Positions 943 through 61,796 of a DNA stretch of 64,000 nucleotides are shown here, one piece after another. The stretch is from contig CALVAN010000006.1 in assembly GCA_944325555.1 (NCBI GenBank), positions 22,998-86,997 on the forward strand, given 5' to 3'. Origin of the DNA: Candidatus Gastranaerophilales bacterium. Lineage in GTDB: Bacteria; Cyanobacteriota; Vampirovibrionia; Gastranaerophilales; Gastranaerophilaceae. The notes beneath the pieces were generated by a model that ran no database searches, was not told where the DNA came from, and worked only from the letters and a program-made list of their open reading frames with translations. A program made the translations under genes and the position numbers. Every line of letters starts with the position of its first letter. The first letter of the stretch is position 1.

Positions 943-2013
943 TTAGTGAATATCTGACGTCTTTTGCTGCTGTTGCAGGGACAAATGCCCGTTACGGTAA
1001 CCTATACCCGCACGGTAAGCCGATACGGAATACAACATAGGCAAAACCGGACCTATCCATTTTAAACCCGAAACAAAACCGACAGAAGCCACATCATCCA
1101 AGTGCAAGCTTACATCGAGGGCTTCAGGGTGGCGTTCGGAATTCAAATTTTTAACCATTTCTTTAAATGTCTTATGTTCCGGCTTTTTGTTTTTGTCAAA
1201 CAACGGATTGATATAATTTTTACCTATAAAGTTGGCTATAGCATTACCAGCGACCAATCCGACGCCAAGAACACCTGTTAACATGGCAACAAATCTTGCG
1301 GTTTTTGATTTTACATTAAATGCATTCATTGTTAAAGCCCCAAGACCCGCACCGACATTACAAAGTGCAATGTTATTTAAGTATTGATATGTACCTTCTT
1401 TTACCTTGTCAGGAAACTGTTTTTTCCAATCGTCTTTAACAAGTTTGTCACCGACCACCCCGCCGGCGATACCGCCTAAAACTGGGATGAGCCCGAGCCA
1501 TGATAATTTTAAAAGATCTGCAAACGGAGCTTCACTTTCAGCATCAGGGATAACTTTTGAAATGAGTTTGTCGTCTTTAAATTTTTCTTTAAACTCTTTC
1601 ATAAGTTCTTTGACTTCATTAAATTTAAGAACCTTGTCATCATTAACCTTTTCTACCAGTTGTTTTGCTTTTTTAGATACAGGCTTAGTAAGAACCTGTG
1701 CAATACCTTCTTTATCGCTTTCGGGAAGCTCTATTATACCTTCAAAAATTTCTTTTCCCTTTATTTTCAAACCTCTTGTTGCAAGCAAAGCTGAAGCAAC
1801 CGTAAAGCCGAGCACAGATGCATTTTTAACCGCACGTCTTTTTCGTTGTTCCTTTGGTGTACGCATAGTATCATATATTCCATAACCTGCGGCCGTGCCC
1901 GTCAATACAGCAGGCATAACATTATAAAGTTTTTCTACAAGTGCAGGCTGATCGAGATATTTGCCAAAAACTTTTGCATTGCTTTTTAAGCTTGAAACAG
2001 GTAATACAGGCAT
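943..2013 (-). CDS. Polytopic membrane protein of unknown function (paralog of 34723-35427)
   Basis: ORF track gives 943..2058, but that start is TTG. The in-frame ATG at 2013 has AAGGA 8 nt upstream. There are several hydrophobic segments. It shares LGG(I/V)..G(V/I), EG(T/V)(Y/F)Q(Y/F)(L/M)N and C-terminal DD...YRAG blocks with ORF 34723..35427. Confidence 0.6.
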   Translation of the reverse strand: MPVLPVSSLKSNAKVFGKYLDQPALVEKLYNVMPAVLTGTAAGYGIYDTMRTPKEQRKRRAVKNASVLGFTVASALLATRGLKIKGKEIFEGIIELPESDKEGIAQVLTKPVSKKAKQLVEKVNDDKVLKFNEVKELMKEFKEKFKDDKLISKVIPDAESEAPFADLLKLSWLGLIPVLGGIAGGVVGDKLVKDDWKKQFPDKVKEGTYQYLNNIALCNVGAGLGALTMNAFNVKSKTARFVAMLTGVLGVGLVAGNAIANFIGKNYINPLFDKNKKPEHKTFKEMVKNLNSERHPEALDVSLHLDDVASVGFVSGLKWIGPVLPMLYSVSAYRAGIGYRNGHLSLQQQQKTSDIH

Positions 2014-5350: not shown

Positions 5351-5525
5351 AAAAACAAAGTGTGTGAAAACCTTAACGGCTTGACGAAGGTCAAGGCGGT
5401 AAGGTTGCAACTGTCCTATACCGGCGTTGTTGCGGGAAAATTTTTTCCGCAACGAACAAATTTCTGAAAGAAATTTGACAGCCGGAAAAACAAAGTGTGT
5501 GAAAACCTTAACGGCTTGACGAAGG
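5351..5525 (+). repeat. Two identical 40-nt direct repeats (5351-5390 and 5486-5525)
   Basis: AAAAACAAAGTGTGTGAAAACCTTAACGGCTTGACGAAGG is read identically at both positions. The 95-nt spacer contains the hairpin GTTGCGG..CCGCAAC (5429-5453). Confidence 0.9.
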
Positions 5526-5568
5526 GCAGGGGGTGAGGGTTGACAAGGATAAAATGCTGCAAAAAAAC

Positions 5569-5672
5569 AATAAAATAGGTTGTCATCCAGAGGAACGAGC
5601 AAAGCGAGCGAGCACAGGATCTTACCAATAGTGAAAAACAACCAAGAACGCCGGAAAGATTCTGAACACACA
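5569..5672 (+). repeat. Copy (forward orientation) of the ~100-nt TGTCATCC...CAGGATCTTAC element
   Basis: Matches the reverse complement of 2124-2217. A partial third copy lies at 53947-53992. Confidence 0.8.
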
Positions 5673-5733
5673 CGATTGAAAAAAACTTCAATGTTTGACG
5701 CTTCAGAATGACAATACATTTTTTGCCTGCGGA
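5659..5733 (+). repeat. 75-nt direct repeat, copy a (partner 6035-6109)
   Basis: ATTCTGAACACACACGATTGAAAAAAACTTCAATGTTTGACGCTTCAGAATGACAATACATTTTTTGCCTGCGGA has two mismatches to copy b. It folds as a nested hairpin (ATTCTGAA/TTCAGAAT enclosing ATTGAA/TTCAAT). It is the source of the duplicated spurious peptide MYCHSEASNIEVFFNR. Confidence 0.9.
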
Positions 5734-5744
5734 TGACGGTATGT

Positions 5745-5975
5745 TAACGGCAGACTAAAGTCTGCCCTACTGAACTGCGTAAGCAGTAAAGCGGCTCTGC
5801 CGCAGGAATACGACTAAACACTGTTGATTTTTAGAGTAAATTTTGACAGACCACAACGCAGTGAAGTGGATGCAAAATTTATTCTAAAAATTTACAGTGT
5901 TTTTTGATTAGCGTTCTTTTCTTTCTTTTGGTTCATTTTCTTTCTTTTAATCGCAAAAAAGAAAGAAAATGAACA
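5745..5975. repeat. Composite hairpin-rich intergenic element, copy A (copy B at 23478-23900)
   Basis: The modules occur in the same order as in copy B. GGCAGAC-TAAA-GTCTGCC (5749-5766); ACTGC-GTAA-GCAGT (5774-5787); GCCGCAGGA; a long hairpin with arms 5819-5844/5874-5899; and a perfect 18-bp hairpin 5931-5948/5957-5974. Confidence 0.7.
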
Positions 5976-6034
5976 AATAAAAAACAAAATCCTGAATCCA
6001 AAAGCAGCAAAATACATCAAACTACGCAGGTAAA

Positions 6035-6109
6035 ATTCTGAACACAAACGATTGAAAAAAACTTCAATGTTTGACGCTTCAGAATGACAATACAATTTTT
6101 GCCTGCGGA
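6035..6109 (+). repeat. 75-nt direct repeat, copy b (partner 5659-5733)
   Basis: Differs from copy a at two positions. It is followed by GGTAGCCTAAAGCCTACC (6123-6140), a variant of the TAAA-loop hairpin. Confidence 0.9.
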
Positions 6110-6288
6110 AGGCGACTATTCAGGTAGCCTAAAGCCTACCTGCGGACAGTGAAAATATTTTTGAGTTATATAAAAGTATTAGTTTATATTTATAAAACAC
6201 TGCTTTTCTGCAATGTGTAAATTATGTTTGCAGTACAAAATATACGTAAAACATTTTCGTTTTATTACTCAACAAAAAAGGAGTCTGT

Positions 6289-6805: not shown

Positions 6806-7054
6806 ATGACAACAATTATAGGTATAAAAATCAACAACCGGCTCGAAACAGCCGTTTCCGTACAGGAAATTTTGACAAAATACGGCTGTATCATAAAAAC
6901 AAGAATAGGGCTGCATGAAGAAATCAACGGCAAATGTTCGCCCAAAGGGTTAATACTGCTTGAAATTATAGATGATAAAGCAGCCGTTGATATCGCAAAC
7001 GAGCTGTGCGATATAGATGATATCGAAATACAACAAATGCGTTTTACTTATTAG
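6806..7054 (+). CDS. Small ACT-like protein resembling the TM1266-type 'iron-only hydrogenase system regulator' family
   Basis: 82 aa. The pattern I.GI.I..R...A..V..IL..YG.II..R.G.H......SP.G.I.LE......A...A..L..I..I is as I remember it for the TM1266 family. Assigned from memory of the family, not from a search. Confidence 0.5.
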   Translation: MTTIIGIKINNRLETAVSVQEILTKYGCIIKTRIGLHEEINGKCSPKGLILLEIIDDKAAVDIANELCDIDDIEIQQMRFTY

Positions 7055-8060
7055 TTTCGGATAAACCGGCATTATCCATCATACTCAAAAGATTTTTAAA
7101 AGTTTTTTGAGCGGATGAACGGTGGAAACTCAATATACCGGAAGAAACCCTGAACACCGGTGAAGTTCTTTGCATTCTGATATCAAAATCAGCCTGTGAA
7201 ATTTTTCCTTCATCAAGTTTCTTCTGGTATTTCTTTTTGGTTGTAATTATATTTAAATGCGGTAAGAAATAACCGAGAGTAGCTGCCATAAATGCAATGC
7301 CGCCAAGTTTTACATAAGCATGCGCTTTTTTGGCAAAATTAAGAAGGTTGTTGTCTTTCGGCACTTTTTTCAAAGCGTTTTCAAGATTTTGGAAGCCTTC
7401 GGTATTATTGACTTTTGCTTCTTTAATAGCATCTAAAATACCTTTGTTATCTTTTTTGTCGGTAACAGCCTTCAACATATCAGATAAGCCCAATTTGTTG
7501 AATACTTTTTCCAATTTACCGCCGTGTTTGTCTACCGTTTCCGAAAAATTAACAAGCGGATTATCTAAATTGTTAAAATCAGAATACCAGTCTATTATCT
7601 GTTTTTGAGAAGCAAATGAAGAACTGAACACTTTACCCTGCTTACCAAATGTAAATTTAGGTTTGCCGGATTTGTCTTTACCTACTGAAATTATCGGGTC
7701 GTCAGCATTGCCCATTGCGGATATCGGTACACCTGATTTCTTAGTGACAGCATAAGCAACAGCTTTATTAATTATAGGCGCACCTGCAACCGAAAGTGCT
7801 ACAGCAGGTACGTCACGTGTAACAACTTCTCTTTTTTCATCGTTGCTGCGGGATTCAAAAAATCTTCCGCCCAACATAAACAATGTTGCAACGATAAAGA
7901 ACATGCTTCTTGTTAACGAACCGTTTGAATCCACATTACAAGCCTTGCCAAGTGCTTCAAAAGCACGATTTGCAGCACCGTTTCCAAAAGAAGGCTGGTT
8001 ATTGGTATTTTGTTTATAAGATGCACGGGGTGCAGCTGATGAATAACCGTTTATTTTCAT
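7044..8060 (-). CDS. Two-TM membrane protein of unknown function with N-terminal ..NNQPSFGNG motif
   Basis: 338-aa ORF. The ATG at 8060 directly abuts the stop of the upstream gene (8061-8063), and AAGGGGG lies 8 nt upstream. TM segments are near aa 50-75 and 250-275, flanking a K/N-rich soluble region. Confidence 0.7.
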   Translation of the reverse strand: MKINGYSSAAPRASYKQNTNNQPSFGNGAANRAFEALGKACNVDSNGSLTRSMFFIVATLFMLGGRFFESRSNDEKREVVTRDVPAVALSVAGAPIINKAVAYAVTKKSGVPISAMGNADDPIISVGKDKSGKPKFTFGKQGKVFSSSFASQKQIIDWYSDFNNLDNPLVNFSETVDKHGGKLEKVFNKLGLSDMLKAVTDKKDNKGILDAIKEAKVNNTEGFQNLENALKKVPKDNNLLNFAKKAHAYVKLGGIAFMAATLGYFLPHLNIITTKKKYQKKLDEGKISQADFDIRMQRTSPVFRVSSGILSFHRSSAQKTFKNLLSMMDNAGLSETNK

Positions 8061-9008
8061 TTATACAGCCCCCTTTGCTTCAGTTTTATTTTGTTGTTGC
8101 GAAGCCGAGGCATTTGCATCTTCTCCCGTGTTAAGTCCGTCAACTCCGGGGAACTTATCACCCGTCTGATAGAGTTTTGGAATTATGCATAAGAAAGCCG
8201 ACAGGGCACCAACAGCAAGGATATTGGTTGCATATCGAAGATTTTTTGCCTTTTTGTGGAACTTATCAACAAATGTTTCTTTATCTTCAGATGTTTTAGC
8301 TGCCTTTTTGGTAAAATCATCAAGGTAATTTGTCATATCTTTGAAAAGCGTAGATACATCTTGCTCTTTGCCGCCTGCTTTAACAGTAGAAGCATTATCA
8401 AGATATTTACCGTTAGCTTTGTTGAGTTTTGTGGTTAATTCCACAGCTTTAGCTCTAAGCTTTTTAGCGGGTTCTGTTTTCTCAACAGCTTTTAACATTA
8501 AATCTGAAAGCTCTGTGATTAAACCTTTTTCTTTGTCAAAACCTTTAAAGGCTTCTTGAGTTAAACTGTTAACAAAATCTTTTTTGATTGCAGCAGAATC
8601 CTTAATAGATGCTGTTGTCTTTTGCATAATAGGTTTGAAGCTGTCCAAAACGCCTGCTTGTACTTTGGCAACTTTACCGCGCAACAAACCGACTCCTGTC
8701 ATCACCAAAAGCGGAACATAGAAAAATGCAGGACCTGACAACAATTCTCTGACAAGTTCTTCTCGTCCGGCTTTATAGTTTAAATGACCAAGTTCTTCAC
8801 GGTTTCTCAAATATCCCTGTGCTGTTCTCGGAGCCATCATACCAAAGGTATCAATACTCAAAAACTCTCCCAAAAAACCGTTATTTTCAATAAACGTAGC
8901 AAAACCAACAATGGGATTACCTTTAAATGAAGGTTTGTTACCCTTTGAATTTCCATGCTCCGTATTAACGTTTTGTTGTCTAGTATAATTTAGTGACTGT
9001 AACTTCAT
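8061..9008 (-). CDS. Two-TM membrane protein of unknown function with N-terminal ..GNKPSFKGN motif
   Basis: 315-aa ORF with the same architecture as its downstream neighbour: N/S/T-rich leader, TM, long K/E/A-rich helical region, TM, polar tail. Confidence 0.7.
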   Translation of the reverse strand: MKLQSLNYTRQQNVNTEHGNSKGNKPSFKGNPIVGFATFIENNGFLGEFLSIDTFGMMAPRTAQGYLRNREELGHLNYKAGREELVRELLSGPAFFYVPLLVMTGVGLLRGKVAKVQAGVLDSFKPIMQKTTASIKDSAAIKKDFVNSLTQEAFKGFDKEKGLITELSDLMLKAVEKTEPAKKLRAKAVELTTKLNKANGKYLDNASTVKAGGKEQDVSTLFKDMTNYLDDFTKKAAKTSEDKETFVDKFHKKAKNLRYATNILAVGALSAFLCIIPKLYQTGDKFPGVDGLNTGEDANASASQQQNKTEAKGAV

Positions 9009-9315
9009 TTAACCCTGCCAAAGTCTTCACACATGAATGTTTAATGCAAAACATAATAATAAATTGCTATTTTGTAACGAACATATTAACATATATTTAC
9101 AAATATGTGTACCCTTTACACTTAATTTTTTGCGTTTTATTAAGTAATGTTAAAATTGTAGCAGTAGCCGAACAAGCCTCAAACTGCTATCAATGTAGTG
9201 TTTGAGAAACAATAAAACAATTTTTTTTATTTTACAAAAATTTGCTGATTCTGAAAAAATTTTTTTTTGATTTATAATATATTCTGTATAGGATAAGTCA
9301 CAGAAGGAAAATTAG

Positions 9316-10392: not shown

Positions 10393-11355
10393 ATGAATTT
10401 TTTGTATAACAAAGAGCTCAACGAGAACCACAATATAACCAAAACAGGTTATAGAGCGTTGTTTTTACTTATACAGCTTATACAACAACCGCTTTCACGA
10501 AATGAATTAATAGGTCTACTGGAAGAAAATCCGATTTTAAACAAAGATTTTTCCAAAGATACTATAACTAATACAATAAATACTCTACGCAAAGCCGGTT
10601 GCATAATAAGCAGACCATCACAAAAAACACAAAACAAATATGTTTTAAAATCCCATCCTTTTATAATTTATTTGTCTCCACAGCATATAAAAGCACTGCA
10701 AACTTTTAGAGAAGGACTAATTGCAAGCGGGAATTGGCGTCTTGTTTTTTTATTGAATAATTTATACACAAAAATAGCAAAACTAACAAAAGAAGAGTGT
10801 GTTGCCGAAACCCTTAAAAACAACCACCCGTTTAAAGATATCGATATAGATATAATAAATAACTTAATTTTATTTATCAAAACAGGAAAAAAAGCTCGTT
10901 TTATCTATACATCACCGAGCAGTGGAGCAGAAGAATTGGAATTTTCTCCCGAATATATTACCTTCGAAAATCAAAAGCTTTATGTATGGGGACATAATCT
11001 AAAATATGACAATTTCGGTTATTTAAGAATTGATAAAATAAAAGAAATTGCTACCCCTATTTATAAAGCGCAAAATGCAGCAGAAGACCACTTTGAAAAA
11101 CCAGTTTTAAAAGTTGAATACATACTCAAAGGTAACAGTCTACAAACATTCGTCTGCAATGAATATGAAGAAATTATAGAAAAAAGCGAATGCACAATCA
11201 AAGTTGCAGCAAATGTAAGCAACAAATTCAACTTTTATCAAAGAATATTGTCATTCGGAACAGATTGCAAAATTCTGACACCAAAATCAGCACAAAAAGA
11301 ACTTTTAAATATTTTAAACAAAATAAAAACAGGATATAAAAATGCAGGACAATAA
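10393..11355 (+). CDS. HTH + WYL-domain transcriptional regulator (first of a pair)
   Basis: N-terminal winged HTH (GYRALFLLIQLIQQPLSRNELIGLL). WYL core ARFIYTSPSSGAEELEFSPEYITFENQKLYVWGHN...FGYLRIDKIKEI. Confidence 0.75.
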   Translation: MNFLYNKELNENHNITKTGYRALFLLIQLIQQPLSRNELIGLLEENPILNKDFSKDTITNTINTLRKAGCIISRPSQKTQNKYVLKSHPFIIYLSPQHIKALQTFREGLIASGNWRLVFLLNNLYTKIAKLTKEECVAETLKNNHPFKDIDIDIINNLILFIKTGKKARFIYTSPSSGAEELEFSPEYITFENQKLYVWGHNLKYDNFGYLRIDKIKEIATPIYKAQNAAEDHFEKPVLKVEYILKGNSLQTFVCNEYEEIIEKSECTIKVAANVSNKFNFYQRILSFGTDCKILTPKSAQKELLNILNKIKTGYKNAGQ

Positions 11356-12247
11356 AATAAATAATGCAGGATACAGGCTTATTGAATTACTCAAAGAGCT
11401 GATGAAAAAGCCGCTGGATGTCTATGAATTGCTAACAATTGTTGAAGATACATCAGATAACAGCTACCGCAAAGAATTAATTAACAAATACCTGAACACA
11501 TTAAAATTACTAAATATTCCTGTTGTTAAACAAAAAGATAAATACTATATCCAAAGAGGCATTGACAATATTGACTTCAATGAAAATGATTTATCAGTAT
11601 TAAAGTTAATAGAAAACGCTCTACCGCAAATTCAAAGCCCCGAGATAAAACAAAACCTTGAGGAAGCTTTACAAATTATAGAGCAAAATTTTTCACAAAA
11701 TACAGACAATCTAATCCAAACTAAAGAGATAAAACCATTTATCACAAACTTTAAACTTGCTTTATATGATGAAAATATTAAAAAATTCGAAAAATTTTGC
11801 AAAGACAAGCTAAAATTAAGTTTAAAATATAAAAATGAAACCACTGGACAAATCGAGCAGTACAACCTGGCACCGGTAAAAATCATATACAAAAACAGCA
11901 ACGCATCCTTAATAGGTTATTATTACGGCACTAATTCTTATAAAGAACTTTTGCTAAAAAACATAATTGAAGCACACCAAATGCCTCAGGTATCAACAAT
12001 AAACTTGTCAGGCTCCGTCACCTTTAAACTAAAAAACAGGCTTGCATATTCTTACAAATTAAAAGAAGGTGAAACAATAATTGAACATGGAATGGATTAT
12101 ATAATCGTATCTAATAATCTTGAAGATAAAGATTTAATTCTAAGACGACTTATCAGATACTATGACAATTGTGAAATTTTATACCCCAAGGCAATGAAAG
12201 AAAATATGCTGCAGCTTATTGAAGATATGGAGAGCCTGTATGCATAG
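11342..12247 (+). CDS. HTH + WYL-like transcriptional regulator (second of a pair)
   Basis: Overlaps the previous gene by 14 nt. N-terminal HTH (GYRLIELLKELMKKPLDVYELLTIV). Degenerate WYL core (LSLKYKNETTGQIEQYNLAPVKIIYKNSNASLIGYYYG...). Confidence 0.65.
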   Translation: MQDNKINNAGYRLIELLKELMKKPLDVYELLTIVEDTSDNSYRKELINKYLNTLKLLNIPVVKQKDKYYIQRGIDNIDFNENDLSVLKLIENALPQIQSPEIKQNLEEALQIIEQNFSQNTDNLIQTKEIKPFITNFKLALYDENIKKFEKFCKDKLKLSLKYKNETTGQIEQYNLAPVKIIYKNSNASLIGYYYGTNSYKELLLKNIIEAHQMPQVSTINLSGSVTFKLKNRLAYSYKLKEGETIIEHGMDYIIVSNNLEDKDLILRRLIRYYDNCEILYPKAMKENMLQLIEDMESLYA

Positions 12248-12618: not shown

Positions 12619-12855
12619 TTACTTAGCAACAGCTCTGTATTTAGCAGCAAGCTGGTTGTACTGCTGTGCCTGTGCACAGGCAATACGGCAAGCAAGATCG
12701 TATTTTGCGCTCAACTTATCGTATTCTTCTTTAGAAACAGTATTATTGGAAGCAAACGCAGGGTTTGCGGGAGAATTTTTCTGAGGTTGTTCAGCTTTTC
12801 CAAAACTTCTCAAAGGTTGGCATGACATGGTGTTTGTAGCTAAGCTGACGCGCAT
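12619..12855 (-). CDS. Small (78 aa) protein of unknown function with N-terminal ..QPLRSFGKA motif
   Basis: The ORF track gives 12619..12879. The internal ATG at 12855 is preceded by a strong AGAAAGGAGA box 5 nt upstream. The C-terminal half is a Q/A-rich helix. Confidence 0.6.
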   Translation of the reverse strand: MRVSLATNTMSCQPLRSFGKAEQPQKNSPANPAFASNNTVSKEEYDKLSAKYDLACRIACAQAQQYNQLAAKYRAVAK

Positions 12856-13486: not shown

Positions 13487-14476
13487 TTAGTTTAAATATT
13501 CTTTAAGGTGTAATATTTCCTGTTTAGCTTTAAGTTTTTGCAGGGCAATATTTTCAATCTGGCGTATCCTTTCCTTTGAAAACCCCATTATCTTCCCTAT
13601 TTCTTCCAGTGTATGTTTAGAATTTCCGTCCAAGCCAAATCGGTTTATCAATATAGTTTTCTCTCTGTGGTTCAAAAAATTAAGCACGGACATAACATCT
13701 TTGTATAAAAACATTGATTGTGTAGTCGCATCAGGAGAACGATAACTGTCATCTGCGACATAATCTTCCAGAACCAAATCTTCGGCTATTGGCGTATCAA
13801 GGCTCACCGGATCTTTAAAAATTGCATTTTTTATATTTTCCAGCTTCTTTTCTGATATACCGAGCTTTGCACTCATTTCCGCATCGCTGGGATCTCTTCC
13901 GAGTTTGCTTGTCAAAGCGGCAGACGCTTTTTTATAAAGTCTTATTTTATCGGTCATATGCACCGGAATTCTTATCGTTCTGGAATGATTGGAAATTGCT
14001 CTTACTATAGATTGTTTTATCCACCACGTTGCATAGGTGCTGAATTTAAAACCTTTTTTATAATCAAATTTTTCAGCCGCTTTCATTAATCCCAAAGAGC
14101 CTTCCTGCACCAGATCCATAAACAACACCCCCTGACCTATATATTTTTTGGCAATACTTACAACAAGTCTTAAATTAGACTGTATAAGCTTTTTCTTAGC
14201 AAGCTCAGCCTCTTTTGCGTTCCCCTCTCTAATTTGCCTGCCGAGTTCTCTCTCATCTTCAGCTTTTAAAAGCTTTATGCGTCCTATATCTTTAAGATAG
14301 TTTTGCAGGATATCATTTTTTTTAACGATTGTACTGAAGGTTTCGATAGTCTCTGATTCAATATTCTGAGCGAGATCCTGTAAATTCTGATTTTCTTCTT
14401 TATTTAAAAGATTTTCTTCAAAATTTTGTACATCAAAATCTTCGACAGCAAAATTTTGCGTCAGATTATTTAACAT
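13487..14476 (-). CDS. rpoD: RNA polymerase sigma-70 family factor (group 1/2, RpoD/SigA-like)
   Basis: Regions 2-4 are unmistakable: [60 protein letters not shown]....RTIRIPVHM, and region 4.2 [20 protein letters not shown]. At 329 aa it is short for a primary sigma. Confidence 0.9.
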
Positions 14477-36312: not shown

Positions 36313-36393
36313 ACTCTGCCGACGAGCAATGACTAAATGTCATTTCGAGGAGAGGTAGGTAGCGCAAGCGGTATTGACAATTAAACAGTACAT

Positions 36394-36465
36394 GGGTGAG
36401 TGGCGCAGTGGTAGCGCAGTTGACTCTTAATCAATTGGTCGTGGGTTCGAATCCCACCTCACCCA
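36394..36465 (+). tRNA. tRNA-Lys (CUU), CCA not encoded
   Basis: GGGTGAG-TG-GCGC-AGTGGTA-GCGC-A-GTTGA-CTCTTAA-TCAAT-TGGTC-GTGGG-TTCGAAT-CCCAC-CTCACCC-A. The next bases are AAG. Confidence 0.95.
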
Positions 36466-36475
36466 AAGCTAATAA

Positions 36476-36574
36476 AAAAGAGGGCTTACGCCCTCTTTTT
36501 TGCACTATTCGAACCCACGACTGTGGGATAATTTATAATCGCATCGCAAGCGATGCTCTGTCCCACCTCACCCA
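36476..36574 (+). repeat. Unit 1: terminator hairpin + tRNA-Lys 3'-fragment-like segment
   Basis: AGAGGGC-TTAC-GCCCTCT+T6 (a functional-looking terminator, 36479-36501). Then TTCGAACCCACGAC (36508-36521, the exact reverse complement of tRNA 36438-36451). Then the hairpin GCATCGC-AA-GCGATGC. Then CCCACCTCACCCA (36562-36574, identical to the tRNA 3' end 36453-36465). Confidence 0.85.
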
Positions 36575-36750
36575 AAATAACTTTTTAAAAACAAAAATTA
36601 CGAGGCTTGTGCCTCGTTTTTTTGTTTTAAAAAGCATACGGATGTAAAAAATACCGGTCAAAACGAGAAGTTTTGCCGGTATTTTGACACTGAACGACAG
36701 CGACGTAAGAGTTTGCTATATAGCAAACTCCACAGGAGCAAAACTAATAG

Positions 36751-36845
36751 AAAAGAGGGCTTGCGCCCTCTTTTTTGCACTATTCGAACCCACGACCGTG
36801 GGATAATTTATAATCGCATCGCAAGCGATGCTCAGTCCCACCTCC
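36751..36845 (+). repeat. Unit 2: second copy of the terminator + tRNA-Lys 3'-fragment unit
   Basis: Near-identical to unit 1 with a handful of substitutions. The acceptor-like end is degraded to CCCACCTCC. Confidence 0.85.
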
Positions 36846-36874
36846 AAAAAAAATATTTATTTTGGAAACAACCA

Positions 36875-36994: not shown

Positions 36995-38575
36995 ATGGGA
37001 AACAAGTTTAATCACCACAAACATATAATTTATTCTGCAATTCTAGGCAACATTTTAATCGGACTGGCAATACTTGCATATTTTAAGGGATTTAAATATC
37101 AATGGTTGCTGGCTGCAGCATTAATACTACCGGTATTTTGGTATGGTTTAAAATCAAAAGAGTATTGCCCAATAAAATACAGTTTGCTTTACAGCATTTA
37201 TACAACGTTCCCTCTTTTTATCACGGCAAGTTTGCTGTTTTTGCTGTCTTTGTTGATAAATCCGCTGGGAGTAATGGTTATCGGAAAACTGTTAATGTTT
37301 GCATTCGCAGGCTGGATAAGCGTTTTTATAACTTTTATTGTTCTTAACTTTTGTTTTGTAAAAGTTCATAAATTACTTAGCAAAACAAAAATTTATAAAA
37401 ATTTATCACTGACTCTTTTCGGGCTTACCCACAAACACCCGTTTGCATACATATTAGTCTGCTTCACAATTGTTGCATCAATTGGTGCACTTACATTTGT
37501 AAATATATTTTTTAAAAATAACCGATTCTTAAATGCCGGTATTTCAGAATTAATGAAAAAAGATTCACACGACTCAAAGGCAATAATATATGATAAAAAC
37601 AAACTTTTAATTGTATATTTTGATAAATACGAAGTTTTTGACTTGGATAAAAGAGAAAAAATAAAATACGGAACAATAGACGGACTAAAACATTATAATG
37701 GGCATTTCAACTTAAATCCAATAAATGATGAATATGTATTAATTATCGGTTTTGAATATGATAAACAAAAAAATGATGACTTAAAATTGCTGAATTTTGG
37801 AGTGTTAAATTTAAAAGATTTTTCGTACAAGCCACTTGGTGAATTTGAGTTGGAACCCTGCTTTCCTGATTATGTTTTTACCTATGACAATAGGAAGCAT
37901 CTTATTGTCACAAACTCTGCAAAGGCATATATCTTTGACGGAACAAAACCGATTTCATTTCCGACCGAAAAATGGTCGCGCAATATAAAAACCAAAGACA
38001 AATTGCTGCCCTATAAAAACAAATATCTTCTTATACAAACCGCAGGATATTTGCACTTTGACACGGGCTTGTTTGAAGGATATTCCCCGTTAATTCAGGA
38101 ATTTAATCCCGAAAATAAAACGCTGAAAACATTGTATAAAAACAAAATTCAGGATAATTACCTTTATTTGAATACATTTTTAGTTGATAACAATAAACTG
38201 TTAATTATTTATAAATCACAAGATGAGGAATACAAACTGAGATTCGACACAATTGATGCGGAAAAAGGAGAAAAAATAGCTGAAGAAGAAACTCTTATAC
38301 CGGATTCCGAATTTGACATTCGTTATGCGGTTATGCAAGACAGTGAAACAATAATGTTTTTTGGTAATGAATCCGACTTCAGACACGGTATTTATGCATA
38401 TAATCCGCAAAAAAAGTCCTTTGACAAAACTTTGTATAAGGCGAATTTTCAGCCGGATTACTCTGATGAGTGTTTTGTATTGAATAACGGAGATGTTGTT
38501 ATTTACAAAAATATTTTTTCGGAGGGGAAAATTACATTATTCAAAAATACAAAAAACCAAAAGCAACATAAATAA
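36995..38575 (+). CDS. Membrane protein (about 5 N-terminal TM) with large soluble C-terminal domain, unknown function
   Basis: 526-aa ORF. The hydrophobic N-terminal 170 aa are followed by a Y/K/N/D-rich region with beta-strand-like periodicity. No family recognised. Confidence 0.6.
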   Translation: MGNKFNHHKHIIYSAILGNILIGLAILAYFKGFKYQWLLAAALILPVFWYGLKSKEYCPIKYSLLYSIYTTFPLFITASLLFLLSLLINPLGVMVIGKLLMFAFAGWISVFITFIVLNFCFVKVHKLLSKTKIYKNLSLTLFGLTHKHPFAYILVCFTIVASIGALTFVNIFFKNNRFLNAGISELMKKDSHDSKAIIYDKNKLLIVYFDKYEVFDLDKREKIKYGTIDGLKHYNGHFNLNPINDEYVLIIGFEYDKQKNDDLKLLNFGVLNLKDFSYKPLGEFELEPCFPDYVFTYDNRKHLIVTNSAKAYIFDGTKPISFPTEKWSRNIKTKDKLLPYKNKYLLIQTAGYLHFDTGLFEGYSPLIQEFNPENKTLKTLYKNKIQDNYLYLNTFLVDNNKLLIIYKSQDEEYKLRFDTIDAEKGEKIAEEETLIPDSEFDIRYAVMQDSETIMFFGNESDFRHGIYAYNPQKKSFDKTLYKANFQPDYSDECFVLNNGDVVIYKNIFSEGKITLFKNTKNQKQHK

Positions 38576-39433: not shown

Positions 39434-41026
39434 ATGGCACAAAGTTTAGCAACAGAACAAGAATGGCAATTTCAAGTTAATCCGTGGATTGCAATGATTC
39501 CTATCATGCTATCCATATTTATGTTTGCGCTGGACGAAACAATATCTAACGTTGCATTACCTCATATGGCAGGCTCTTTTTCTGTCAGCCAGCACGAATC
39601 TACATGGATTATCACGAGCTATCTTGTTGCCAGCGGGGTTATAATTCCAACCGTTGATTTTTTCTGTAAATTAATGGGCAGAAAACAGTATTTTTTACTA
39701 AGTATTGTCATATTTACAGGCGCTTCCATTCTTTGCGGAATTTCAAATTCCATGGCAATGATGCTTATTTCAAGAATATTGCAGGGGATTGGCGGCGGCG
39801 GTATCATGCCTATTGCACAGGCAATCATTTTTGAAATATTTCCAAAAGACAAACTACCGTTAGCAATGTCTATATTCGGTCTGGGGGTTGTTCTTGCTCC
39901 TATTATGGGGCCTGCTTTAGGTGGTTGGATAACGGAAACTTATTCTTGGCCTTGGATTTACTTTATAAATATCCCTTTCGGTATCATCACATTTTATTTG
40001 TCTTTAAAATATATCGAAGAACCGCCATACTCTCTCAAACAGCCCGGTGTTAAAATGGATTTTTCAGGGTTTACATTTATGGCTTTATGGCTTTTAAGCC
40101 TGCAGGTTGTACTTGAAAAAGGTAACGACAACGACTGGTTTGGTTCACCTTGGATATGTAAATTATTTACATTTTCTATGATATGTTTGGTTATTTTTAT
40201 ATATATTCAAATTAAAAAGAATATGGAAAAATCCCAACCGCTTATAAATTTATCTATTCTAAAAAACCACAACTTTTTAATCGGAACAATGGGGCAGGTT
40301 GTGTTGATGGGTGTTATGATGGCATCATCTTCGATTTTGCCTTCAATGCTGCAATCTTTGATGGGGTATTCAGCCTTTATGAGCGGCCTTTCCATGGTAC
40401 CGAGAGGCGCAGGATGTTTGCTTGCGTCTGTATTATCTGGGGTTATGGTTATTAAATTTGGCGTAAAACCAGTTGTTGTCATAGGTCTTATTATTCTTGC
40501 AGCCGGCAGCTTGATGTTTGGTGAAATTAATACATCAATAGCTCTGGCAAACATTGCAATACCTAACTTTACCTTCGGGCTTGGTATGCTTTTAACAATG
40601 GTACCGTTATCAAACATTTCCTGCGCAACGCTTTCCAATAAAGACCAGACAAACGCTGCAGGCTTGCAAAACCTTGTTAAAAACGTCGGTGCAGCTATCG
40701 GAACATCTATTGCAACCACAATGATTTCAAGATTTTCTCAAATTCACCAGATGACAATGGTTCAGTTCTTAAACGACGGCAATAATGTGTACATGGAAAG
40801 ATTAAATGCAATGACCTCGTCATTCCTTTCTCACAATTTTGAGTATCAAAATGCACTACACATGGCTCAAGGACAAATGTATAATATGTTGAAACAGCAG
40901 GCAACGTTATGGGGATACGTAGAAACCTTCAGATATTTTGCTCTTGCCGTTGCTCTTATTTTGCCGTTTGTTTACTTTTTATCGGAAGAAAAAAAGAAAA
41001 AGAAAAAAGTTGAAACCGCAAATTAA
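39434..41026 (+). CDS. MFS transporter, DHA2 (EmrB/QacA-like, 14-TM) drug:H+ antiporter family
   Basis: 530 aa. LDETISNVALPHMAGSF, the motif-A-like region, SRILQGIGGGGIMP, and 14 hydrophobic segments. Confidence 0.85.
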   Translation: MAQSLATEQEWQFQVNPWIAMIPIMLSIFMFALDETISNVALPHMAGSFSVSQHESTWIITSYLVASGVIIPTVDFFCKLMGRKQYFLLSIVIFTGASILCGISNSMAMMLISRILQGIGGGGIMPIAQAIIFEIFPKDKLPLAMSIFGLGVVLAPIMGPALGGWITETYSWPWIYFINIPFGIITFYLSLKYIEEPPYSLKQPGVKMDFSGFTFMALWLLSLQVVLEKGNDNDWFGSPWICKLFTFSMICLVIFIYIQIKKNMEKSQPLINLSILKNHNFLIGTMGQVVLMGVMMASSSILPSMLQSLMGYSAFMSGLSMVPRGAGCLLASVLSGVMVIKFGVKPVVVIGLIILAAGSLMFGEINTSIALANIAIPNFTFGLGMLLTMVPLSNISCATLSNKDQTNAAGLQNLVKNVGAAIGTSIATTMISRFSQIHQMTMVQFLNDGNNVYMERLNAMTSSFLSHNFEYQNALHMAQGQMYNMLKQQATLWGYVETFRYFALAVALILPFVYFLSEEKKKKKKVETAN

Positions 41027-41583
41027 TTATCTTTATTTTTTTCCCACAGCATCCTGTTTCCGTTTGGCGACACTTTTTTAAAGCCACACTTCTTGTAAAA
41101 AGCACTAGATGTGGCAATCAAAGTAATTTTATCATTTACCAGCTGCAAATATTTTACTATAGCAGAACCTATCCCTTTAACAGACCTTGGCGGGCGTGCG
41201 TACACATACATCGGATGAACCTGCAGATAGTCCAATTCAATTGCTTTATCCCTCATTTTAGAAGTTTCCGCAACACCCAGTACGCCCAAGGTCTTTAAAT
41301 TTTCAAAGTTATCTTCCTGTCTTGTTAATACAAAAATGTTTTTATTAATTTTATTTTTCTCGGTTCTGGCAATCTGTTTTACATAGGCACACATATTATT
41401 TACATAACTGTCACCGCCAAAATCTATTGCAATATCATCAAGAGCCCGTATGTCCTTTTTATCATGCACATCGAGCTCAACAAGATTTGCATAATCTTGT
41501 ATATAGTCTTTTTTTTCGTATGAATATTTTCTTATCGGAAGTTTTTGTACAAACTTTGCACCGAAGGATATAGTATTGTTCAT
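41023..41583 (-). CDS. GNAT-family N-acetyltransferase-like protein with N-terminal MNNTISFGAKF motif
   Basis: C-terminal GNAT motif A-like region (YLQVHP.YV......SVKGIGSAIVKYL.........I.L.ATSSAFYKKCGFKK). The N-terminal 100 aa are unassigned. Confidence 0.5.
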   Translation of the reverse strand: MNNTISFGAKFVQKLPIRKYSYEKKDYIQDYANLVELDVHDKKDIRALDDIAIDFGGDSYVNNMCAYVKQIARTEKNKINKNIFVLTRQEDNFENLKTLGVLGVAETSKMRDKAIELDYLQVHPMYVYARPPRSVKGIGSAIVKYLQLVNDKITLIATSSAFYKKCGFKKVSPNGNRMLWEKNKDN

Positions 41584-41647: not shown

Positions 41648-42469
41648 TTATTTAAGATAATTAGCCGCCTTTACGGCATTAAGATAATAAACCGCACGTC
41701 TGATATTGTTCATATCTTCTTCACTGATATCCTTTGAGTTTTCTTCCGGTCCGAAACCGTATATAAGATTATTGATTTTCGCAGCATTATTTATGCTTTT
41801 AACTAGTGCGTTATATGCGCTTTGAGAATCCTCAAACTCGGGAGCTTTGTCAACAAAATCCGCACCGCCGATATTCCCGTCAAGATAATATAATGTTTTG
41901 TTTAAAACTTCCTCAAGCTCGGGATATTTACTTCTTTTACAAGCCGTATAATCAAGGAGCACAGGGTTCAATCTGGTATTTTGGCTTGTACCCGTCATTT
42001 GCGCAACTCTGTTTCTGATTCTTGCCATTGTTTCTTTAGCAGCTTCCAATCTTTCTTCAGGCTGCATAAGGTCAACCGTAACAATACTCATAGGATTTGC
42101 CATGGTTTCATCTTTATAGAAAATTTTATTGTAAGAAGAAGTATATTGGTCCGGTTTGTAATAGTCAGAATCACTAAAGCCACCCATAATCAAAGATTTT
42201 TTGTCACCCAGGCTGGGTTGCGGAATAGGTGCACCTATAATTTTTTCAAGTGTTTTATGAAAATTCTGTGTGTCTTTCCCGTAAACATCAGACTTAAAAC
42301 CGTTTTCTCTTAATGTATGTACAGCAGAAGAGAGAATTTCTCCGTCTTCTTTTTTATTTGTATAATAATATTTAGTTCTGACCGCACCGCCTCTGGTATC
42401 CTGAGTTTGAACCTTTATTGTACCTTTAAATGCTAACGGTGTTGAGTTATTAAGCGGAGATATATTCAT
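41648..42469 (-). CDS. Orphan protein (273 aa) with N-terminal MNISPLNNSTPLAFKG motif
   Basis: Good RBS (GAAAGGA 7 nt upstream). No TM segment or family recognised. Confidence 0.6.
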   Translation of the reverse strand: MNISPLNNSTPLAFKGTIKVQTQDTRGGAVRTKYYYTNKKEDGEILSSAVHTLRENGFKSDVYGKDTQNFHKTLEKIIGAPIPQPSLGDKKSLIMGGFSDSDYYKPDQYTSSYNKIFYKDETMANPMSIVTVDLMQPEERLEAAKETMARIRNRVAQMTGTSQNTRLNPVLLDYTACKRSKYPELEEVLNKTLYYLDGNIGGADFVDKAPEFEDSQSAYNALVKSINNAAKINNLIYGFGPEENSKDISEEDMNNIRRAVYYLNAVKAANYLK

Positions 42470-42579: not shown

Positions 42580-44310
42580 ATGAAATTTGATAAAAAATTA
42601 TTAATATTTATAACTCTGCTTACATTGGCTGCGCTGGGATTAAGACTCATAAATATAAGCAATGCAGCCTTGTGGATAGATGAGCTTTATTGCTATGATA
42701 TTGCATTAAAACCGACTATTACGGAAATTTTAAAAACAGTATTTTTAACGGACCTGCACGCACCGTTGTTTTTTATAATTCTACATTTCTGGATAAAACT
42801 TTTAGGCAGCACAGATTGGGTACTAATATTACTGCCAGTGATTTTTTCAACACTCAGCGTGCCCGTCGGATATTTTATTTGCAAAAAACTTTTTGATACC
42901 AAAACAGCTGTCATTTTTTCCTTACTAAACACCTTCAGTGCTCTTGAAATTTACTATGCACAAGAGCTTAAATTCTATTCAATGCTGCCATTGCTGGGAT
43001 TGTTGAGTTTTTATTTTTTCTCAAAAATCACGCAAAATTTCAGCATAAAAGACACATTATTGCTTTTATTAACCAACACACTCATAATTTATACCTTTAA
43101 TGCAGGCATATTCTTTATAATTGCGGAATTTGCAGTCGGTTTGACATTTATACTCCTTAAGAAAAAAGAAAATTTAAAAAACTATCTATATTCTTTTATT
43201 TTTACAGGAATTTTATACATACCGTATTTTTACTTTCAAATAAAAACAATACAGGGCTTGAACAAAAGCATATGTACACTTTTTGACATGTTCCATTTTG
43301 ATTTGGGCTTTGTATTTACACTTATACAAAACTTTTTTACCCCGGCAATCACCAATTTGTCTAACAATCCTGTTAACTACAATCCGATTGAGATGCTTAA
43401 AACTACCGGTGCTCTCGGGTTTGTTTTTTACATAATTTTCTTTTGCGCAATTGCCTTTTATGGAATTTACAAGCCCATTAAAGATAAAAATCATAATGCA
43501 ATATTGATTTTTTCAGCCTCATTTTTATTTATTTTAATTTTAATATTTCTTGCAATTTTACACATTATCCCGCTTGTAACAAGATACACTCTGCTTGTTC
43601 ACTTAGCAATACTGGCTGTTATTGCCTGCGGAATTGTACAAATCAACAACAAAAAAATCCTTTACACAATAATGTCATTGACTGCGTTGATTTCTTTATT
43701 CAGTTATGCTTTTTACAAAGATTCGCCGCTCAAACGTAATTCGTCCTTCCACTATTATAGCGCCCAAGCTCTGCAAAAAGCCGGTGCCAGTGATAGTGAT
43801 ATGATAATAATGCCATATTTTGGCAGATTTTTATACAAATATTTTGACAAAGGACAGCTTATTGACTACAGAAGCGAAGAATTGCTGCTTTTGAACGATG
43901 CATTTTTAATGAAAGAAACCTTCAAACTTACTCAAGAAGAATACCAAAATAAAGATAAAAGCGGACTAAAACTTCAAAAATACATAGAAAACCCCAACCC
44001 ACCAGAAGAACTTGAAAGATACTTCCAAAAAAACTATCTTTCAAAACTCCGTAAAGGGCAAAAGCTCTATCTGGTTGAAAATTACAGTATTTACATAATA
44101 CCTGATGAACTTTATATACCCATGTTAAAAGGTATTAATATAGACAAACCCAACCTTAGCGAACTTGAAAAAAACGCTCGTTATGCACTACTATATACCA
44201 AAATATTAAAAAACCTTGAACTCATTTTTTCTAAAAATCTCACACCGGTTAAGATTTACCATTCCCAAAACCAAGATGTAAAAATTTTTGAATTTATAAA
44301 AGAAAATTAG
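42580..44310 (+). CDS. GT-C fold glycosyltransferase (family 39 / ArnT / PMT-like)
   Basis: 576 aa. There are about 11 N-terminal TM segments, with the first-loop acidic motif ALWIDELYCYD. A soluble C-terminal domain follows. Confidence 0.6.
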   Translation: MKFDKKLLIFITLLTLAALGLRLINISNAALWIDELYCYDIALKPTITEILKTVFLTDLHAPLFFIILHFWIKLLGSTDWVLILLPVIFSTLSVPVGYFICKKLFDTKTAVIFSLLNTFSALEIYYAQELKFYSMLPLLGLLSFYFFSKITQNFSIKDTLLLLLTNTLIIYTFNAGIFFIIAEFAVGLTFILLKKKENLKNYLYSFIFTGILYIPYFYFQIKTIQGLNKSICTLFDMFHFDLGFVFTLIQNFFTPAITNLSNNPVNYNPIEMLKTTGALGFVFYIIFFCAIAFYGIYKPIKDKNHNAILIFSASFLFILILIFLAILHIIPLVTRYTLLVHLAILAVIACGIVQINNKKILYTIMSLTALISLFSYAFYKDSPLKRNSSFHYYSAQALQKAGASDSDMIIMPYFGRFLYKYFDKGQLIDYRSEELLLLNDAFLMKETFKLTQEEYQNKDKSGLKLQKYIENPNPPEELERYFQKNYLSKLRKGQKLYLVENYSIYIIPDELYIPMLKGINIDKPNLSELEKNARYALLYTKILKNLELIFSKNLTPVKIYHSQNQDVKIFEFIKEN

Positions 44311-46673: not shown

Positions 46674-47951
46674 ATGCTTAGGGTATCCAACAATTATTTT
46701 TCTGTTTCTGCCTCAAAATATAATAATTCATCAGTTTATACCACTACCCCAAAAATCAAATCACTTAATAAAGATACGATAAGTTTCGGTTATATAAACG
46801 CAGGTCCTGTGCCGAAGGACATACAGCTGTACAGAGCTATCGGCTATGGAGAATATAAAAAATTATTAGAAGGCAAATGCATAGAAGGTCATTCTTACAC
46901 AACATCAGATCCAAGAGGCTGGATAGCAAAAGGGTGGAATCTGGCTTATGGGGATTGGAATTCCGATAACTATTTTGTAACCTTCAAAACCAATCGTAAT
47001 CTTGATATTATGGACAGGCGCGACTCTTTGGAAGACACAAGATACAGCATAGGCGATTACACTCTTGATGACGTTAAAGAAATAAGAAAAGGTAACAACG
47101 TCCACGGTGAACTGCTATATGCTCCAAATTTTGAAGAAGCAAAAGCCGAAGATTTAAAAAAGAAAGAATCAGAAATTCAAAGACTGACAAAAATTATAAA
47201 ATCACAAATACAGCCCTCGCTTCAGGAAAAATTCCGATCTGTTTTCAGAAAAACTGACAATACCAACACTAAAAAAGAAATGCTTTACAACGCTTATGAC
47301 GAACTTGGCAGTTATTGCAAAGAATTTCCGGAAATAATAGATTCAATGATGTCAATAGCCCAACAAAAAGACAGTCACATCTATAATGTTATATCAATGG
47401 TTTATTATGCGAACAGAGAGCAGGATCTGTCTTATGTAAGAAAATACCTCAACGACTGTTTAGACAACAACAAAGTTATAAACAACAAAGCCGTTGAATA
47501 TATGAAAAAACAAGGAAAAAATGAAGATATGCCGTTGCTTATGCGGATGTTTACAGAAGGAGCCGACAAGCCAAGTATATCAAGACATACAGTAGTGGAC
47601 GCAATAAAAAAAGCTGCATCATCAAAAGAAGACTATGATATGCTTAAAAATACTTTCAAAAATTCCGATATCATATCTCAATATTATTTGATGCCATTTT
47701 TTGAAGATACGGACGATTATACAACATTGTCTAGATTCATTCTGGACAAATACAAGAACGAATCACAAAAAGAAATGTTTAAAGATTATAAAATCGAAGG
47801 ACTGATGAGTGCCTGCATTAAAGAACTTAAACAACACGGTTCTTTAGAGGATATAGAATATATAGAGCCATATGCAAAAGAAAATTTAGTCTATGTAAAC
47901 GAAGAAGCTCAAAAAGCAATTGCAACACTTGAAAACAAATACTCTAAATAG
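46674..47951 (+). CDS. Orphan 425-aa protein with ..KDTISFGY leader; helical-repeat-like C-terminal half
   Basis: The track ORF starts at 46488 inside repeat DNA. The ATG at 46674 is preceded by AAAAGGAGAG. The N/S/T-rich leader ends in ISFG at aa 36-39. Confidence 0.65.
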   Translation: MLRVSNNYFSVSASKYNNSSVYTTTPKIKSLNKDTISFGYINAGPVPKDIQLYRAIGYGEYKKLLEGKCIEGHSYTTSDPRGWIAKGWNLAYGDWNSDNYFVTFKTNRNLDIMDRRDSLEDTRYSIGDYTLDDVKEIRKGNNVHGELLYAPNFEEAKAEDLKKKESEIQRLTKIIKSQIQPSLQEKFRSVFRKTDNTNTKKEMLYNAYDELGSYCKEFPEIIDSMMSIAQQKDSHIYNVISMVYYANREQDLSYVRKYLNDCLDNNKVINNKAVEYMKKQGKNEDMPLLMRMFTEGADKPSISRHTVVDAIKKAASSKEDYDMLKNTFKNSDIISQYYLMPFFEDTDDYTTLSRFILDKYKNESQKEMFKDYKIEGLMSACIKELKQHGSLEDIEYIEPYAKENLVYVNEEAQKAIATLENKYSK

Positions 47952-61738: not shown

Positions 61739-61796
61739 CTCAATAACCTTTCAAAAAATACTGGTGATTAAACTCATCATAGCATATAATTATCTT

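Follow-up and report, generated by a model that had tools for sequence, protein, structure and literature searches.

A conserved N-terminal Phe-Gly leader on dissimilar orphan proteins of Gastranaerophilales, tentatively read as a sorting signal

In this study, we asked whether a short N-terminal leader ending in Phe-Gly, here called the FG leader, is a genuine module of the otherwise dissimilar orphan proteins on which it recurs in a 64,000-nt stretch of DNA from a Candidatus Gastranaerophilales bacterium (this whole stretch being the window) and, if so, what it might do. The G+C content of the 64-kb window is 27-40%, its proteins recur, identical, on human-gut metagenome contigs, and relatives of one tagged protein, p7044, were found in 30 species-representative genomes; the genome labels of these relatives are nearly all Candidatus Gastranaerophilales, Gastranaerophilaceae or Ca. 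Limenecus, with a few evident mislabellings. The host is a non-photosynthetic gut relative of cyanobacteria (Melainabacteria/Vampirovibrionia). Gastranaerophilales are uncultured, occur widely in human and other primate guts, and are functionally almost blank. Window proteins are named by their left coordinate (p7044 is the protein from 7044-8060, and so on). The related DNA used for comparison comprised ~0.8 Mb with 348 open reading frame (ORF) families, and its loci (contigs) carry L-numbers.

The FG leader is genuine, an N-terminal module that is conserved across the clade. Its Phe-Gly core persists over an order-level clade, while the linker ahead of it is free in length and sequence. Ortholog conservation is the decisive evidence, the tripeptide statistics being modest by themselves: in the orthologs of all six families listed by a preliminary description of the window, the core is kept while the linker changes. 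The six N-termini quoted there all occur in the window sequence exactly as written.

The protein p7044 (7044-8060, minus strand; 338 amino acids, aa), an orphan in which residues 54-68 and 252-266 are moderately hydrophobic as judged from translation and hydropathy, begins with the leader MKINGYSSAAPRASYKQNTNNQPSFG (residues 1-26; 7983-8060) behind the ribosome-binding site (RBS) AAGGGGG. F-x(0,1)-G is kept in 79 of its 83 homologs (36-100% identity), the four exceptions being two N-terminally truncated sequences and two with SFKRG, and the motif is kept in 30 of 30 species-representative loci. Over the first ~30 alignment positions only M1 and F25 are (near-)invariant, and the linker varies in both sequence and length. 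Directly upstream, with no intergenic gap, lies the orphan p8061 (8061-9008, minus strand; 315 aa; hydrophobic segments at residues 95-109 and 259-281), whose leader MKLQSLNYTRQQNVNTEHGNSKGNKPSFKG covers residues 1-30 (8919-9008). Here only M1, K2, Y8, P26, S27, F28, G30 and N31 are (near-)invariant over the same span; M1, K2, P26, S27 and F28 do not vary across 20 species, whereas the linker differs in both sequence and length, and the motif is again present in 30 of 30 species-representative loci. Orthologs write the conserved residues with many synonymous codons (P as CCT, CCA, CCG or CCC; S as TCT, TCA, TCC, TCG or AGC; F as TTT or TTC; G as GGT, GGA, GGC or GGG), a turnover which indicates that selection acts on the peptide and not on RNA or DNA.

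Because these two genes are adjacent and their family profiles align (hhalign over the first ~90 columns, probability 65%, E 6e-5), they are not to be counted as independent cases; judged from their sequences, p7044 and p8061 may be distant paralogs, perhaps old tandem duplicates. The earlier claim that the tagged proteins are unrelated apart from the leader thus needs a reservation for this pair, although no significant mutual blastp match was found among the cargo (E >= 0.009). The description of the two as two-transmembrane helical proteins is only plausible, their segments being borderline (Kyte-Doolittle hydropathy, KD, over 19 residues 1.3-1.75); the AlphaFold2 model of p7044 is helical, with a mean predicted local distance difference test score (pLDDT) of 67.

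Conservation of the same kind is seen in the other tagged genes of the window. In p12619 (12619-12855, minus strand; 78 aa, C-terminal half helical), the leader MRVSLATNTMSCQPLRSFG occupies residues 1-19 (12799-12855) and QPL(x)(x)FG is kept in 27 of 27 species loci; a conserved sigma-70-type promoter, TTGAAA-N17-TATAAT, and the RBS GAAAGGAG lie upstream and fix the start at 12855. The orphan p41648 (41648-42469, minus strand; 273 aa; RBS GAAAGGA) carries the leader MNISPLNNSTPLAFKG (residues 1-16; 42422-42469), and eight of nine homologs (41-99% identity) have the motif as MNISP[ILV]SFKG or ...PLAFKG. Synteny around this gene is not retained in distant species, and at 41-47% identity the homologs show MNISP[ILV]SFKG, that is, the module with almost no linker. 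On the plus strand, the orphan p46674 (46674-47951; 425 aa) has a leader of residues 1-39 ending in ...NKDTISFG (46674-46790); all seven homologs (43-51% identity) keep ML.[IV]SNN ... D[TI][IV]SFGY with a variable stretch in between. Of the six cases, p41023 (41023-41583, minus strand; 186 aa; leader MNNTISFG, residues 1-8, 41560-41583) is the least secure, with one close ortholog, MNNVISFGASF, at L041 4351-4905. It was described as a GNAT-like enzyme; the resemblance is there but weak, the match to Acetyltransf_7 falling below threshold (23 bits against a cut-off of 27; E 1e-4).

Revised start codons could have taken the motif away from the N-terminus, as the preliminary description had considered; in five of the six genes the start is backed by an RBS. 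A Shine-Dalgarno-like sequence lies 5-10 nt before the starts of p7044, p8061, p12619, p41648 and p46674, and a start of p46674 at an upstream TTG is excluded, the RBS AAGGAGA setting the ATG at 46674. A search upstream of the starts of p41023 and p44344 showed no visible RBS. The latter gene (44344-46383, plus strand; 679 aa, four CxxC pairs) and p943 (943-2013, minus strand; 356 aa, membrane-like, ...SNAKVFGKY) had been put forward as weaker cases, and neither held up. In p44344 the NFSGS is not kept in the ortholog at L040 579-1652 (ISSGS), where only GID[TA]IAFIG[DE] at about residue 57 is conserved; the protein is weakly similar to p46674 (blastp E 0.009), and no relatives of it were found in metagenome contigs. 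For p943 only same-species copies were compared, and its paralog p34723 (blastp 1e-10) has no FG. Both are doubtful and should be dropped from the tagged set or marked as uncertain.

At the level of counts, [SA]F(G|KG) turns up six times among the first 45 residues of the 61 ORFs of the window, where 0.9 would be expected from the motif rate in the remainder of the same proteins (Poisson 3e-4), and only two of 2000 shuffles gave six or more N-terminal motifs; taken alone this enrichment is weak, because the motif was defined post hoc. Over the 348 ORF families, each counted once, the strict form SF(G|KG|KA|RG) occurs in the first 50 residues 10 times against 3.9 expected (p 0.007). A looser motif shows no such enrichment (21 against 18 expected). 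Since about four strict matches are expected by chance, some singletons (L013, L030 and L039 169-720) may be chance. A tag-only profile of 28 columns found no match among 1.84 billion representative proteins, 28 columns being too few for significance; in a local test of the tag profile, the p7044 and p8061 families scored 20-40 bits and the other tagged families 4-17 bits.

Across the ~13 tagged families, the FG leader consists of a cap, a linker and a core motif, always at the extreme N-terminus. The cap consensus M-[KRNQ]-[ILV]-[NQSTG] is found in 6 of 13 tagged and 6 of 213 untagged families (Fisher 8e-6), which bears out the earlier remark that the first residues are alike (M-[KRN]-[ILV]-x-[SP]-[LN]-[NA]), and I, L or V stands at position 3 in 8 of 13 against 39 of 213. 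Together with the strictly N-terminal position, these conserved first residues argue that a free or first-emerging N-terminus matters. The linker, of 0 to ~35 residues, is polar and differs between species in sequence and length. Compared with background, N (2.7x), S (2.3x) and T, Q and P (~1.75x) are over-represented in the leader, with D and E at 0.06-0.08x of background (0.5% each), a depletion that is somewhat circular for the singletons, because part of the tagged set was chosen with an acid-poor filter. The core, first written as [SA]F[GK], is real in its Phe-Gly and is better given as [P/ILV]-[SA]-F-(K/R)-G, with the rarer forms F-S-G, F-A-G and F-K-A.

The leader is predicted to be disordered: in the AlphaFold2 models pLDDT is ~30 over residues 1-35 of p7044 and below 50 over residues 1-13 of p41648. 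The p41648 model (pLDDT 76) has its first strand beginning at residue 16, just where FKG ends. In p8061, p41648, p46674 and the L002/L040 family (SFKG/YDARP, the slash marking the junction), the conserved or folded part starts directly behind the core, and a Phe-Gly at the boundary of the mature part in four families is the appearance expected of a cleavable leader. As the preliminary description had noted, there is no classical hydrophobic signal peptide: the maximal KD over 10 residues within the first 40 is 0.19-1.44 in the six tagged proteins and 1.92-3.33 in six Sec-type proteins of the window.

The module extends beyond the window, related loci adding at least seven further tagged families. 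These include a family of 388 and 416 aa (L002/L040; MSLFINNINNYHKQKQYKNCSFKG/YDARP against MINKISFKG/YDARP), a 302-aa family with M[KQ]KI.[TS]FTPHK[TI]SFGTTER, two small paralogs with MKIQSTPSFKAK and MKINNVSFKAN, a 91-aa protein with MQITRISFAR, a 406-aa protein with MLNINNNIPISFKAQ, as well as tagged singletons on L013 and L030. The 7-kb contig L041 has nine genes, of which five are tagged, two of these being small paralogs of 104 and 111 aa; this suggests islands and local duplication. L041 1-7051 is a 77%-identical relative of the 41-42 kb region of the window, where tagged genes likewise cluster in an island at 41-48 kb and their orthologs diverge fast. None of 15 tagged genes with precomputed records has a Pfam domain, against 41 of 68 untagged neighbours (p 1.3e-5). 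No cargo function was assigned by searches of Pfam, NCBIfam and PDB by sequence and fold: Foldseek of the p7044 and p41648 models against the PDB gave no match below E 0.08, p46674, p44344 and the L002 388-aa protein gave empty or insignificant results against PDB chains by sequence, and five further tagged proteins had only below-threshold Pfam matches (e.g., PAD_porph, E 0.017). Fast evolution, clustering, duplication and all-orphan cargo are traits typical of secreted, surface or effector repertoires.

What, then, is the leader for? We tentatively favour a leader for export or sorting that works independently of Sec, is recognised in the cytoplasm and is possibly cut at the FG boundary, a reading which we infer from its position, its composition and the kind of cargo. 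In such a leader the cap would be moderately hydrophobic, the linker disordered and acid-free, and the core [P/Φ]-S-F-(K)-G would mark the boundary of the mature protein. Without Sec or Tat, a cytoplasmic receptor would grip the invariant Phe-Gly and pass the protein on to machinery for export or insertion, with the leader perhaps being cut off at FG or just behind it. As cargo we would expect a large, fast-evolving, clade-restricted set of soluble, small coiled-coil and membrane-associated proteins, similar to an effector or surface repertoire. We favour this reading because the N-terminal position, constrained cap, disorder, acid-free linker of free length and boundary anchor occur together, and because the cargo proteins are all fast-evolving, clustered, clade-restricted orphans in a genome that also has normal Sec substrates.

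The only candidate machine near the window is a flagellar-type III export core (fliF, fliH, flhA and fliI). These genes lie 5-12 kb left of the window; the cluster is found at L047 13308-21071, ~2-10 kb left of window position 1, in the order fliF, a 341-aa gene without Pfam domain, fliH, flhA and fliI, and the 388-aa FG-tagged orphan (MSLFINNINNYHKQKQYKNCSFKG..., with the below-threshold PAD_porph match) is directly upstream of fliF in the same orientation. Most Gastranaerophilales genomes are reported to keep export-gate genes without a full flagellar set, and a role of these export-gate genes in secretion has been postulated (preprint 10.64898/2026.04.24.720558). A bolder version of the proposal, possible but on the doubtful side, is that the FG leader is the address label of an undescribed sorting pathway confined to Gastranaerophilales, with its own receptor, translocon or protease. 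It is similarly doubtful, if conceivable, that this translocon or protease rests on the retained flagellar export core and that the pathway handles several percent of the proteome, nearly all of it clade-specific. In a still more extreme version, the FG leader would be mechanistically related to what plastid transit peptides were built on.

Several observations weigh against an export or sorting role. The N-tails of p8061 orthologs are rich in K/R immediately ahead of PSFG, which suggests a cytoplasmic rather than a translocated tail, and some cargo looks cytoplasmic, namely the GNAT-like fold, which needs acetyl-CoA, and the CxxC-rich p44344, if it is a member at all. No promoter or operator is shared among the tagged genes. 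As regards the flagellar machine, the FG tag is absent from the flagellar axial proteins of related loci (rod, hook and junction proteins, among them the FlgL- and FlgK-like ones at L018 18560-20888). The spacing does not fit either: in Salmonella, at least 19 residues (optimum 24) separate the two elements of the export signal with the motif no closer than 30 residues to the N-terminus (PMC8983047), whereas the distance from cap to Phe in FG leaders is 4 to ~35 residues. In the p41023, p41648, fam44, fam97 and fam74 (L040) families, Phe is at residue 7-14. Finally, the FG leader is absent from the AvrB_AvrC-domain protein at the right end of the window. AvrB_AvrC is a type III effector family of plant pathogens. 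This protein of 1295 aa (window 63321-64000, plus strand, onward; full gene at L048 4531-8418, minus strand), with a precomputed Pfam match, begins with MSGTEVTQSNRAS....

Among the alternatives, a cytoplasmic docking motif survives best. The leader would then be a short linear motif on a flexible tether that brings diverse proteins, membrane proteins among them by way of their cytoplasmic N-tails, to a common partner, such as a scaffold, a chaperone or a polar or motor hub, with neither export nor cleavage. A disordered tether of free length with a tiny invariant anchor is the anatomy of linear motifs, the K/R-rich N-tails of p8061 orthologs suggest that the tag remains in the cytoplasm, and GNAT-like and CxxC-rich cargo suits that compartment. 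Such motifs, however, are not as a rule confined to the extreme N-terminus, where each of the ~13 families bears the tag and where residues 1-4 are constrained as well; moreover, an acid-free leader rich in hydroxyl and amide residues on orphan, fast-evolving, clustered cargo is more typical of sorted or secreted sets. We regard docking as a rather unlikely explanation, albeit one to be taken seriously.

It is less probable still, in our judgement, that the leader is a propeptide processed without export, which a dedicated endopeptidase would trim at Phe-Gly, licensing assembly or activity. The model for such a reading is Prp, which removes a MLKLNLQFF' extension from ribosomal protein L27 and from the capsid and scaffold proteins of phage 80alpha (PMC9405229). 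The sequence style is similar, the extensions are common to unrelated proteins, some short FG leaders have Phe at residue 7-9 after M-x-Φ (MNISPISFKG, MINKISFKG and MKINNVSFKA), and FG coincides with the start of the folded part. On the other hand, Prp and long L27 have been reported in Firmicutes, Fusobacteria, Synergistetes, Tenericutes, Thermotogae and Spirochetes, not in cyanobacterial lineages (PMC9405229). FG leaders also reach ~40 residues with linkers of free length and read S-F-G or S-F-K-G instead of Q-F-F-A, and a propeptide on several percent of a proteome without a role in export would be unprecedented.

The extreme N-terminal position and conserved cap would also suit a degron, in which cap and FG are read by an adaptor of an AAA+ protease (ClpX-, ClpS- or Lon-type) for the joint turnover of clade-specific proteins, and the N-terminal signals recognised by ClpX, which are short and polar, hydrophobic or basic, offer a lead in this direction. 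Known N-degrons, however, sit in the first few residues, with no further invariant element as much as 40 residues downstream, the free-length linker is hard to square with such recognition, and no gene context supports it; we consider a degron very improbable. That the leaders have no common function at all and reflect composition (A/T-rich codons after the start favour K, N and I), chance tripeptides and hidden paralogy is scarcely credible, for although the looser motif is not enriched (21 against 18), p7044 and p8061 are possible paralogs and ~4 strict matches may be chance, this explanation is largely refuted already by ortholog conservation, with P-S-F-G invariant through many synonymous codons beside a hypervariable linker in several mutually dissimilar families, and the joint pattern of cap and core is strongly non-random.

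Further observations concern the surroundings of the tagged genes. A shared regulon was considered and rejected: p12619 has an ordinary sigma-70-type promoter, p8061 has a conserved promoter of its own, and there is no sigma-28-like consensus. The ~140 nt upstream of p8061 (9009-9150) are almost invariant in 19 species, more so than the p8061 leader itself, and contain the perfect palindrome GTGTACCCTTTACAC at 9107-9121, which is unique in the window. An RNA element was rejected here, as there is neither covariation nor an Rfam match, so that the region resembles a promoter combined with the operator of a conserved regulator; candidates are perhaps the two WYL-domain proteins encoded divergently at 10393-12247. 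The p12619 gene sits downstream of a sigma-70-family gene (13487-14476), and its family conserves another motif with Phe, P-[AN]-F-[SA]-S, ~15-20 residues past the FG core and just before the helical half. In the 204-aa protein P0092 (L049 313-927), the final ~90 residues of the p41648 family are joined to a classical Sec signal peptide and a DUF2233-like piece. Either a Sec signal has naturally taken the place of the FG leader here, or the scaffold is chimeric; we did not use P0092 as evidence of an extracytoplasmic location because it comes from a single 2-kb, possibly chimeric scaffold. Three large polytopic membrane proteins are encoded at 42580-44310, 36995-38575 and 61728-63233 of the window; the first is PMT_2/ArnT-like, the third looked similar by eye, and the first stays beside the orthologs of p41648 and p44344 in L040 as a conserved trio. 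Intergenic direct repeats occur at 5634-5738 and 6010-6114 (89% identity) and at 5351-5407 and 5486-5542, and others at 36464-36586 and 36739-36861, directly after a tRNA-Lys (36393-36466); these local repeats give rise to look-alike spurious ORFs at 5351-6114 and 36464-36861.

Present on ~1 gene in 10-20 of the regions examined, the FG leader provides a sequence handle on a class of 'dark' proteins. If it is an export or sorting signal, it defines the secretome or effector set of the clade and points to an undescribed recognition machine, and annotation pipelines could flag the tagged proteins. Should it be a docking or processing tag instead, it still picks out proteins that are linked in function, together with a Phe-Gly recognition event that can be tested. 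In both cases, sorting-signal libraries of the TIGRFAM/NCBIfam type gain a concrete new target.

How does the FG leader compare with known systems? The preliminary description knew of no described signal with this sequence, and our searches agree: over residues 1-40 of ten proteins no model of Pfam-A or NCBIfam, including the curated sorting-signal models, matched at E <= 0.1, and we found no paper describing an FG motif in Melainabacteria. A Sec signal has a hydrophobic h-region of ~10-15 residues within the first ~30, a lipoprotein signal has the lipobox L-x-x-C, a Tat (twin-arginine translocation) signal has S/T-R-R-x-F-L-K followed by an h-region, and a prepilin signal is a short basic leader ending in Gly, followed by a hydrophobic helix with Glu at +5. 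The FG leader resembles all four in its N-terminal position and net positive n-region and, in the p8061 family alone, in having K/R before the motif and a moderately hydrophobic stretch after it. A Sec-type signal is ruled out by the missing h-region (maximal KD over 10 residues 0.19-1.44), and a lipoprotein signal by the lack of a boundary Cys in five families; p12619 has a conserved Cys (SCQPL) 5-6 residues ahead of F, without a preceding hydrophobic stretch. As for Tat, most families have no twin-arginine, no Tat-signal hidden Markov model matched, and some p8061 orthologs have RR or KK 3-5 residues ahead of F, in a spacing unlike Tat, while the other families have no h-region. A type IV prepilin signal is rejected on the residues after FG, which are polar in most families; the true prepilins of the clade have MNKKSGFTLAEV, with the canonical KSG/FTLAE.

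Two further systems share traits with the FG leader. The double-glycine leader is an acidic, helical leader, LSxxELxxIxGG, with small residues at -2 and mostly small-peptide cargo, served by a C39-peptidase ABC exporter. It is likewise hydrophilic, without a hydrophobic core and with an invariant Gly at the mature boundary, but FG leaders are almost devoid of E and D (0.5% each), and no C39-ABC transporter was seen among the annotated neighbours in the window and related loci. The Prp tag, [MLxx(D/N)LQ(F/L)F'A(S/H)KK], of 9-15 residues, is found on L27, on the phage 80alpha capsid and scaffold proteins and, as proposed, on FlhB (PMC9405229). It too is a short N-terminal tag on unrelated proteins with an M-x-Φ start and a polar residue and Phe followed by a small residue at the mature boundary. 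It differs in its core (QFF'A against SFG/SFKG), its fixed 9-15 residues and its reported phyletic range; FG leaders show no QFF and no A(S/H)KK after FG, and a rplU, prp, rpmA locus was sought in the ~0.8 Mb of the window and related DNA without any being found.

The lineage of Gastranaerophilales is sister of the phylum of the plastid ancestor, and in this light a resemblance to chloroplast transit peptides is striking, yet it is formal and we treat it only as a lead. Transit peptides are unstructured, hydroxyl-rich, contain prolines and more basic than acidic residues, and have a moderately hydrophobic N-terminus and a semi-conserved FGLK motif (PMC8645953), of which the FGLK-like form (Phe-Gly-x-Lys) serves receptor binding (PMC8645953). 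Disorder, scarcity of acidic residues, abundance of hydroxyl residues, prolines, a moderately hydrophobic extreme N-terminus, a preference for basic over acidic residues, free length and a Phe-Gly-like motif are all matched by the FG leader in form. Transit peptides, by contrast, act in the eukaryotic cytosol with the GTPases Toc34 and Toc159, are recognised by TOC/TIC and are cut by the stromal processing peptidase; the FG motif is far more strictly conserved, and FG leaders are N/Q-rich, not S/A-rich.

In its architecture, the nearest known system is the bipartite export signal of early subunits of the type III secretion system of flagella, in which an N-terminal hydrophobic signal is combined with a motif for gate recognition, FxxxΦ, which docks at FlhB_C (Bryant et al. 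2022, PMC8983047). Common to both are a small hydrophobic element at positions 2-5, a Phe motif further on, a polar linker tolerant of sequence change, and disorder; in the FG leaders, small hydrophobic residues do stand at positions 2-5 of a disordered N-terminus (8 of 13 against 39 of 213 families; pLDDT < 50). Neither leader has a hydrophobic core, and reading in the cytoplasm with no cut by signal peptidase, as in the flagellar signal, is what we propose for the FG leader. The gate motif FxxxΦ itself is rejected, F+4 being A/P in p7044, A in p8061, E in p12619, N in p46674, I in p41648 and F in p41023. The sequence of the FG leader, and presumably its reader, is new, whereas short N-terminal tags on diverse cargo are a familiar kind of module.

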